A DNA stretch of 64,000 nt from Escherichia coli (GTDB taxonomy: Bacteria; Pseudomonadota; Gammaproteobacteria; Enterobacterales; Enterobacteriaceae), in the NCBI RefSeq assembly GCF_022846255.1, contig NZ_AP025682.1. One strand, given 5' to 3'. The number at the start of each line of letters is the position of its first letter. Within the stretch, counting starts at the first letter, position 1. Shown piece by piece: positions 32,975 to 35,490 of the stretch. Made by a program: the position numbers and the translations under genes. The notes beneath the pieces are model-generated. The model was not told the origin of the DNA and did not search any database. It worked only from the letters and a program-made list of their open reading frames with translations.

Positions 32975-34450
32975 TTAACCCGCAACAGCAATACGTTTCA
33001 TATCCGTCATATAGCCGCGCAGTTTCTTACCTACCTGCTCAATCGCATGGCTGCGAATCGCTTCATTTACATCACGCAGCTGCGCGTTATCTACCGCACC
33101 TTCCGGAATAGCTTTACCCAGGTCGCCCGGTTGCAGCTCTGCCATAAACGGTTTCAGCAGCGGCACACAAGCGTAAGAGAACAGATAGTTACCGTACTCG
33201 GCAGTATCGGAGATAACCACGTTCATTTCGTACAGACGCTTACGGGCGATGGTGTTGGCAATCAGCGGCAGTTCGTGCAGTGATTCATAGTAAGCAGATT
33301 CTTCGATGATGCCGGAATCAACCATGGTTTCAAACGCCAACTCAACGCCTGCTTTTACCATCGCGATCATCAGTACGCCTTTATCGAAGTACTCCTGTTC
33401 GCCGATTTTGCCTTCATACTGCGGCGCGGTTTCGAATGCGGTTTTGCCAGTCTCTTCACGCCAGGTCAGCAGTTTCTTATCGTCGTTGGCCCAGTCAGCC
33501 ATCATGCCGGAGGAGAATTCGCCGGAGATGATGTCGTCCATATGTTTCTGGAACAGCGGCGCCATGATCTCTTTCAGTTGCTCAGAGAGCGCGTAAGCAC
33601 GCAGTTTCGCCGGGTTAGAAAGACGGTCCATCATCAGGGTGATGCCGCCCTGTTTCAGCGCTTCGGTGATGGTTTCCCAACCGAACTGAATCAGTTTTTC
33701 TGCGTATGCCGGGTCGGTGCCTTCTTCCACCAGCTTGTCGAAGCACAGCAGAGAACCAGCTTGCAACATACCGCACAGGATGGTTTGCTCGCCCATCAGG
33801 TCAGATTTCACTTCCGCAACGAAAGAGGATTCCAGCACGCCCGCACGGTGACCGCCGGTTGCAGCCGCCCATGCTTTAGCGATCGCCATGCCTTCGCCTT
33901 TCGGATCGTTTTCCGGGTGAACGGCAATCAGCGTCGGTACGCCGAATCCACGTTTGTACTCTTCACGTACTTCGGTGCCAGGGCATTTCGGCGCAACCAT
34001 TACGACGGTGATGTCTTTACGGATCTGCTCGCCCACTTCGACGATGTTGAAACCGTGTGAGTAACCCAGCGCCGCGCCGTCTTTCATCAGTGGCTGTACG
34101 GTGCGCACTACATCAGAGTGCTGCTTGTCCGGCGTCAGGTTAACCACCAGATCCGCCTGCGGGATCAGTTCTTCGTAAGTACCCACTTTAAAACCATTTT
34201 CGGTTGCTTTACGCCAGGATGCGCGCTTCTCGGCAATCGCTTCTTTACGCAGAGCGTAAGAAATATCCAGACCAGAATCACGCATGTTCAGGCCCTGGTT
34301 CAGCCCCTGTGCGCCACAGCCGACGATGACTACTTTTTTACCCTGAAGGTAGCTCGCGCCATCGGCGAATTCATCGCGCCCCATAAAGCGACATTTGCCC
34401 AGCTGTGCCAGCTGCTGGCGCAGATTCAGTGTATTGAAGTAGTTAGCCAT
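32975..34450 (-). CDS. ilvC: Ketol-acid reductoisomerase (NADP+)
   Basis: ORF 32975..34672; start at [23 protein letters not shown] (491 aa). Confidence 0.95.
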
Positions 34451-34599
34451 GGTGATTCCTCGTGATGTTGTGCTTCTTATTGTTCGGTTCGCGTTTGCGA
34501 GATTGAATTCACTATATGACAGGAAATTTATTGCGGAAATTGATATATTCACAACGTCACATTGCAATTTTTGCAACGTCAACATTGAGGGCTGCGCCA
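34451..34599. promoter_or_regulatory. ilvC-ilvY divergent promoter/operator region (IlvY operator sites expected)
   Basis: 149-bp gap between divergent ilvC ATG and proposed ilvY start; by analogy with the known IlvY-regulated ilvC promoter. Confidence 0.45.
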
Positions 34600-35490
34600 T
34601 TGGATTTACGCGATCTGAAAACCTTCCTGCATCTGGCGGAAAGCCGCCATTTTGGCCGCAGCGCGCGGGCAATGCACGTTAGCCCGTCTACGCTTTCGCG
34701 ACAAATACAGCGCCTGGAAGACGATCTCGGTCAGCCGCTGTTTGTGCGTGATAACCGCACGGTAACGCTGACGGAAGCGGGCGAAGAACTGCGCGTTTTC
34801 GCCCAGCAAACGCTGTTGCAGTATCAGCAACTGCGCCACACCATCGATCAGCAAGGGCCGTCGCTCTCTGGCGAATTACATATCTTCTGCTCGGTGACCG
34901 CTGCCTACAGCCATCTGCCGCCGATTCTCGATCGCTTCCGCGCGGAACACCCGTCGGTGGAGATTAAACTCACGACTGGTGATGCGGCAGATGCGATGGA
35001 AAAGGTCGTCACTGGCGAAGCGGATCTGGCGATTGCCGGGAAACCGGAGACTCTGCCCGGCGCAGTGGCATTTTCGATGCTGGAGAATCTGGCAGTAGTG
35101 CTGATTGCCCCCGCGCTACCCTGCCCGGTGCGTAACCAAGTTTCGGCAGAGAAGCCGGACTGGTCTACAGTGCCGTTTATCATGGCCGATCAGGGACCGG
35201 TGCGCCGGCGCATTGAACTGTGGTTTCGACGCAACAAAATCAGCAACCCGATGATTTACGCCACGGTCGGCGGGCATGAAGCGATGGTGTCGATGGTAGC
35301 GCTCGGCTGTGGCGTGGCATTGTTGCCGGAAGTGGTGCTGGAAAACAGCCCGGAACCGGTGCGTAACCGCGTGATGATTTTAGAGCGCAGTGATGAAAAA
35401 ACGCCGTTTGAGCTGGGCGTGTGCGTACAAAAAAAGCGGCTTCATGAGCCGCTGATTGAGGCGTTCTGGAAGATTTTGCCGAACCACTAA
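34600..35490 (+). CDS. ilvY: LysR-family transcriptional activator of ilvC
   Basis: ORF 34516..35490; recalled IlvY begins [19 protein letters not shown], which aligns with a TTG at 34600; N-terminal HTH; start uncertain (in-frame ATG at 34516). Confidence 0.8.

Follow-up and report, generated by a model that had tools for sequence, protein, structure and literature searches.

The window analysed here is a 64,000-nucleotide stretch of the Escherichia coli contig NZ_AP025682.1 (assembly GCF_022846255.1). It carries ilvC on the minus strand, with its ATG at 34450-34448, and divergent from it ilvY on the plus strand (Table 1). The plus strand at 34450-34610 reads gccat and ggtgattcc, followed by cactatATGacagg, ttattgcggaaattgatatat, acattgcaatttttgcaacgt and caacattGAGGGctgcgccaTTGgatttacgcgatctgaaaaccttc. 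The TTG at 34600-34602 stands in the context ggctgcgcca TTG gat tta cgc gat ctg aaa acc ttc and, if read as an initiator, opens the peptide MDLRDLKTF, as the preliminary description of the locus stated. The list of open reading frames begins the gene at an ATG at 34516 (34516..35490, plus strand, 324 aa). This ATG lies in frame, 84 nt or 28 codons upstream of the TTG, and is, again as described, the only one before the upstream in-frame stop, which stands 32 codons before the TTG and leaves 31 open codons. The spacing from the ilvC ATG is 65 bp for the ATG (34451-34515, the figure given in that description) and 149 bp for the TTG.

IlvY has the domain order of a LysR-type regulator, with an N-terminal HTH_1 followed by LysR_substrate, and its gene has the matching arrangement, ilvC at 34450 (minus) and ilvY at 34600 (plus) diverging with the dyad operators O1 and O2 between them. 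At the far end, the ilvY stop overlaps the stop of the convergent ilvA by 4 bp in the window (35487-35490). K-12 carries a 58-bp insert at this junction (L002 ~1377-1434) with a REP-like palindrome (GCCTGATAAGCGAAGCGCTATCAGGC), which the window does not have. The insert sets ilvY and ilvA 51 bp apart and adds a C-terminal Lys, which is why IlvY is 296 aa here and 297 aa in K-12; both length variants are seen among strains with the TTG allele.

Table 1 Features of the divergent ilvC-ilvY locus, in window positions
Feature	Position	Strand	Basis
ilvC coding sequence, ketol-acid reductoisomerase	32975..34450	-	open reading frame; RefSeq 1476-nt CDS in the closest genome and in K-12
ilvC 5' untranslated leader (putative)	34451..34504	-	ilvC transcription start ~34504 from the geometry quoted in PMC5002191
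ilvC -10 hexamer TATAGT (putative)	34511..34516	-	reverse complement of ACTATA; at -12..-7 of the predicted ilvC transcription start, by the geometry quoted in PMC5002191
In-frame ATG, not a start codon, part of promoter DNA	34516..34518	+	alignment, Shine-Dalgarno check, published ilvY transcription start as quoted in PMC5002191
IlvY operator O2 (TTATTGCGGAAATTGATATAT)	34528..34548		exact reverse complement of the published aTATatCaatttccGcaATAa; nearly invariant in 82 sequences
Candidate ilvY extended -10, TGaTATATT	34541..34549	+	just upstream of the published transcription start (quoted in PMC5002191), inside O2
ilvY transcription start, approximate	34553..34556	+	O1 centre at +17; second-hand, accurate to a few nt
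IlvY operator O1 (ACATTGCAATTTTTGCAACGT), TTGCA-n5-TGCAA dyad	34559..34579		exact reverse complement of the published ACgTTGCAAaaaTTGCAAtGT; highly conserved
Shine-Dalgarno sequence GAGGG	34587..34591	+	8 nt before the TTG, read from the sequence
TTG initiation codon of ilvY	34600..34602	+	RefSeq CDS start, ortholog alignment, NCBIfam IlvY profile position 1
ilvY coding sequence, 296 aa and stop	34600..35490	+	891-nt CDS, WP_000365784.1; NCBIfam and Pfam matches

The divergent-overlapping promoter region of ilvY and ilvC was reportedly worked out by Wek and Hatfield (1986, 1988) and Rhee et al. (1998, 1999). K-12, the strain to which the published geometry belongs, has DNA 100% identical to that of the window between the ilvC ATG and the end of O1. 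As quoted in PMC5002191 from Wek and Hatfield 1988, O1 is ACgTTGCAAaaaTTGCAAtGT, centred at +17 from the ilvY transcription start, and O2 is aTATatCaatttccGcaATAa, which overlaps the boxes of the ilvY promoter as well as the ilvC -35; PMC5002191 also gives the positions of the footprinted dyads relative to the ilvC transcription start, -65, -43 and -34, with IR1 (= O1) at -65. The centre of O1 in the window is 34569. Since O1 sits at +17 of ilvY and at -65 of ilvC by this second-hand geometry, ilvY transcription would start near 34553, about 47 nt upstream of the TTG, and ilvC transcription near 34504. On the same quoted positions, O1 is the autorepression site inside the ilvY 5' UTR. The preliminary description can be refined here: by the quoted geometry, the ATG at 34516 would lie some 37 nt upstream of the ilvY transcription start, hence outside the ilvY mRNA, and would overlap the ilvC -10.

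Plausible -10 elements can be proposed for both promoters. The putative ilvC -10, TATAGT, begins opposite the A of the 34516 ATG. The candidate ilvY -10 falls within O2, consistent with the published overlap of O2 with the ilvY promoter boxes as quoted in PMC5002191, and 34537-34549 is invariant in 82/82 of the sequences compared below. A consensus promoter and terminator scan of 34380-34680 gave no hits and no sigma-70 site; because it demands a -35 hexamer, the scan is uninformative for an activator-dependent or extended -10 promoter. Reg-Seq mutagenesis handles this ilvY-ilvC stretch as promoter and IlvY-site DNA, and a search by coordinate prefix and gene name found no ilvY transcription start in the Cappable-seq and SMRT-Cappable-seq supplements. 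That the operators and both promoters share a short region, as first described, is right: the 84 nt between ATG and TTG hold both IlvY operators and the core of the ilvY promoter.

Annotation and protein families agree in placing the IlvY N-terminus at the TTG. Every RefSeq record inspected has its ilvY start at the codon equivalent to 34600, namely the closest genome (891-nt CDS, WP_000365784.1), K-12 MG1655 (b3773), O157:H7 and two other strains with the TTG allele. With the NCBIfam IlvY equivalog NF008722 the protein reaches 514 bits, where the cut-off is 246, and its residues 1-295 are matched to positions 1-292 of the 293 in the profile. Profile position 1 falls on the TTG codon, and the ATG-started version aligns as residues 29-323. 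Pfam HTH_1 (PF00126) covers residues 3-62 (profile 1-60 of 60) and LysR_substrate (PF03466) residues 89-293; residues 1-28 of the ATG-started version have no profile match. Solved LysR-family structures start in the same register as the TTG-started protein (CcpC 1:1, CatM 1:1, NtcB 2:2).

When the long version was used as the query, an exact MD(L/F)RDL(K/E) start was found in 104 representatives of the best 120 homologue clusters, among them all named IlvY proteins of Cronobacter, Buttiauxella, Erwinia, Pantoea and Mixta (293-300 aa). Only the unnamed automated calls P0002 (324 aa, 755 members, ENA) and P0096 have the 28-residue extension, and both carry L at the TTG position. The 297-aa form counts 7,405 members, as against the 755 in the 324-aa cluster of automated ENA metagenome gene calls. 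As the extension is confined to unnamed automated calls with L at this position, the ATG start is an artefact of the TTG allele; the 324-aa IlvY is a recurring gene-caller artefact, specific to that allele, in which operator DNA is translated.

A scan of one genome per species gave 80 Enterobacteriaceae loci, with IlvY best-segment identities of 91-99%, which together with the window and K-12 make a comparative set of 82 sequences. The codon at the aligned ilvY start is GTG in 65/82, ATG in 15/82 and TTG in 2/82, and never a non-initiator. Val, Met and Leu would make an odd series of internal substitutions, yet the position is always an initiator, which argues that the TTG is the true start. 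A GGAG or GAGG is found 6-9 nt before this start in 68/82 of the orthologous regions. The window thus has the features of a near-cognate start, an NTG codon (TTG 34600) with a Shine-Dalgarno sequence 5-10 nt upstream (GAGGG), and across the set an initiator is kept at the position in 82/82 while the frame upstream of it decays.

Translation from the ATG at 34516 would instead produce a 324-aa IlvY with a 28-residue extension, and the TTG would be an internal leucine codon. Initiation favours ATG over other codons, the frame between 34516 and the TTG is free of stops in the window, in K-12 and in nearly all E. coli, and the 324-aa form appears in some automated annotations, as in the 755 member sequences of P0002. 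Across the family, however, the frame does not hold. The 28 upstream codons contain one or more in-frame stops in 57/82 sequences, and in most species the nearest stop lies 1-6 codons upstream of the start. The triplet aligned to 34516-34518 is ATG in 49/82 and ACA in 33/82, the ATG is further missing from 11 E. coli genomes, and it is both in frame and open to the start in about 15/82 (14/81 plus K-12). Between ilvC and ilvY lie 142 to 280 bp, and the lengths take all three residues modulo 3. An open frame of this length is in itself unremarkable, since a stop-free run of 28 codons is expected at random with a probability of (61/64)^28, or ~0.26, and is seen in 25/82 of the orthologous regions (30%). 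On the comparative evidence, the frame from the ATG to the TTG is open merely by chance in Escherichia and in a minority of other genera.

The pattern of substitution points the same way. Column entropy by codon phase is 0.07/0.02/0.87 over the first 59 codons after the start, the strong periodicity of coding sequence, and a flat 0.41/0.55/0.56 over the 28 upstream codons. The preliminary description had asked for an ortholog comparison of these codons, with amino-acid conservation to count in favour of the ATG. That conservation is absent: the upstream 84 nt have a mean identity to the window of 77% at the nucleotide level and 63% at the amino-acid level, whereas the first 28 real codons have 92% and 98.5%. 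Nucleotide identity above amino-acid identity is the reverse of what coding sequence gives, which argues that the 28 upstream codons are noncoding. In the 82 sequences 34528-34579 hardly varies, whichever of the three notional codon positions is taken, and 34580-34599 varies most. The marks of a protein-coding extension from 34516 are accordingly missing, with the frame closed in most sequences, no amino-acid conservation and no excess of third-position variation.

Further evidence against initiation at 34516 can be summarised as (i) no GGAG, GAGG or AGGA occurs in the 20 nt upstream of the ATG; (ii) by the geometry quoted in PMC5002191 the ATG precedes the ilvY transcription start and lies over the ilvC -10; (iii) no profile covers the extension, and the match to the curated IlvY model begins at the TTG; (iv) the position of the supposed leucine is always ATG, GTG or TTG. 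The comparative data essentially refute translation from the ATG, to which we attach almost no probability. The proposal in the preliminary description that ilvY initiates at the TTG is upheld by the same data. The register of the IlvY N-terminus given there was also correct; the refinement is that in K-12, from which that N-terminus comes, the codon is GTG and not TTG.

A weaker form of the proposal is that initiation occurs mostly at the TTG and that open-frame Escherichia strains make a minor extended isoform from the ATG on rare longer transcripts, arising from an unmapped upstream or read-through promoter. The open frame would permit this, and hardly any E. coli lacks the ATG, an ATG-less haplotype being found in 11/5,426 genomes. 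Near-fixation has another explanation, as the ATG shares a base pair with the ilvC -10 (its A stands opposite the first T of the hexamer), so the triplet would be kept within Escherichia without being coding. Moreover, the ATG is without a Shine-Dalgarno motif, the extension would be encoded by operator DNA that is constrained at the nucleotide and not the protein level, and a transcript covering it would have to run antisense to ilvC, from a start within the leader or the gene. We consider dual initiation very improbable.

The true start could also lie elsewhere, at the in-frame TTG at 34585, five codons upstream and within the predicted 5' UTR, or at a downstream ATG such as Met24. The codon at 34585 is TCG in K-12 and falls in 34580-34599, the least conserved stretch; it is also without a Shine-Dalgarno sequence, since GAGGG lies downstream of it. 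A start at Met24 would remove the first helix of HTH_1. Both candidates were rejected on conservation, the placement of the Shine-Dalgarno sequence and the extent of HTH_1, and a start at either is hardly credible.

We conclude that ilvY is almost certainly translated from the TTG at 34600 and that the 84 nt before it are noncoding and form the core of the divergent ilvY-ilvC control region. The TTG start is already known, being embodied in the annotation and in the classic ilvYC literature, and is ordinary; the supplements of translation-initiation papers (Ribo-RET preprint, TRAINSPOTTER, INRI-seq) have no ilvY entry. What is added here is modest and comprises the frequencies of the TTG and GTG alleles in E. 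coli, the family-wide distribution GTG > ATG > TTG, a reading of the ATG as a piece of the ilvC -10 hexamer, and the identification of mis-started 324-aa database entries.

On the ilvC side, the -10 region (34511-34520) occurs as two discrete haplotypes, ACTATATGAC and ACATTACAAC, separated by four linked differences with no intermediates. String matching assigns 48/81 sequences to ACTATATGAC (or ACTATATGTC in 2), which contains the ATG, and the other 33 to ACATTACAAC, which does not. Both are present within Citrobacter, Enterobacter, Klebsiella, Salmonella, Escherichia and other genera, and the ATG-less form in the 11 E. coli genomes is of the ACATTACAAC type. When tested for linked recombination blocks, the haplotypes did not track divergence in the neighbouring ilvY or ilvC; they may have arisen by short-patch recombination or recurrent switching, or go back to an old polymorphism. 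Several Citrobacter, Klebsiella and Raoultella species (L009, L019, L038, L047, L080) have inserts of ~70-130 bp in the ilvC leader, at the equivalent of just right of ~34485 in the window, which stretch the ilvC-ilvY spacer to 216-280 bp. The sequence of these inserts (GAATCCCCAGGAGCTTACTC) appears ERIC/IRU-like. The leader also holds a C/A-rich CACAACATCA (minus strand, reverse complement of 34474-34483), with TGATGTTGTG conserved in nearly all 82 sequences; the conserved CACAACAT motif resembles GcvB target sites, and ilvC is a genuine target of the sRNA GcvB (PMC9299463).

In K-12, ilvY (b3773, NP_418221) is the same gene with the same annotated start position and the same 149-bp spacer to ilvC. 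It differs at the start itself, where K-12 has GGCTGTCCCTGTGGAT (GTG) and the window GGCTGCGCCATTGGAT (TTG): the 9 nt up to and including the start codon differ at four linked positions (GTCCCTGTG in K-12, GCGCCATTG in the window), and one more difference lies just before the Shine-Dalgarno sequence. E. albertii (L004) shares GCGCCATTG and the TTG haplotype with the window, and O157:H7 shares GTCCCTGTG with K-12; the same 9 nt are GCGCCTGTG in E. whittamii (L007) and AGCTCCTGTG in the E. coli GTDB representative (L003). Start haplotypes vary at 34592-34602 while the operators just upstream are almost invariant. Of 5,426 complete E. coli genomes, 5,425 contain the 381-nt ilvC-ilvY region. By matches to 32-nt allele-specific queries, 3,358/5,426 (62%) carry the TTG haplotype and 1,774/5,426 (33%) the K-12 GTG haplotype, the remaining genomes having other start variants such as that of the GTDB representative. 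With 3,358 genomes against 1,774, TTG is the majority allele of E. coli and no oddity of one strain. In other genera, GTG or ATG is fixed at the ilvY start. By the aligned haplotypes, the TTG form seems to have arisen from an ancestral GTG, along with a change of T to A at position -1.

These alleles raise the idea of the ilvY start codon as a naturally tuned expression knob, with TTG and the spacer GCGCCA set against GTG and the spacer GTCCCT, a reading that we advance tentatively and think rather unlikely. The linked spacer changes beside the start codon might be compensatory. Folding of the 5' UTR from the transcription start to +40 in three start-codon haplotypes sought a structure that would explain them; a structured element was rejected, as the z-scores (+0.94, +0.82, -1.04) are no better than those of shuffles.

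Non-ATG starts are found in other E. coli regulators, lacI (GTG), cra and mlc among them, and expression from GTG or TTG is reportedly ~8-12-fold below that from ATG (PMC11445065). UUG starts ~3% of E. coli genes. By analogy, ilvY may belong with these as a regulator gene with a weak near-cognate start, one that is non-ATG across most of the family. For lacI the fitness effect of GTG versus ATG has been shown by experiment, whereas for ilvY the likeness is one of analogy; beyond that comparison, ilvY is additionally autorepressed at O1. In its layout the locus resembles oxyR-oxyS, cynR-cynT and metR-metE, in which a LysR-type regulator diverges from its target, tandem dyad operators lie over the regulator promoter or 5' UTR and the -35 region of the target, and the regulator N-terminus opens directly with HTH_1. 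IlvY differs in its dyad, TTGCA-n5-TGCAA, whose monomer motifs have an unusually long 11-nt interspace (PMC5002191).

We propose that the TTG at 34600 would be read as formyl-methionine, with GAGGG 8 nt upstream as the Shine-Dalgarno sequence, yielding the 296-aa LysR-type activator IlvY. Across the 84 nt the order would be the ilvC -10 on the other strand (over the ATG), O2, the ilvY -10, the ilvY transcription start near 34553, O1 in the 5' UTR and the ribosome-binding site. In the literature, IlvY at O1 represses its own promoter, and ilvC is activated when IlvY occupies O1 and O2 cooperatively, together with acetolactate or acetohydroxybutyrate. The start codon is TTG in the window, GTG in K-12 and the majority of genera, and ATG in a small number. 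A weak initiator would keep IlvY synthesis low, and a weak start codon would fit a low-abundance, autorepressed regulator.

The analysis serves chiefly to check annotation, in which the N-terminus to be given to IlvY is that of the TTG-started 296-aa protein. The locus is also a clean teaching example of how a chance open frame in regulatory DNA can be told apart from coding sequence, by conservation of every position without codon periodicity, by length that varies in three frames and by a start that is always an initiator. If the TTG and GTG alleles change the level of IlvY, ilvC would be induced at a different threshold and the divergent promoters would shift in their supercoiling-coupled balance; autorepression at O1 could buffer differences in start-codon strength. 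The polymorphism within the species could be used to probe whether start-codon strength matters in an autorepressed LysR-type regulator.
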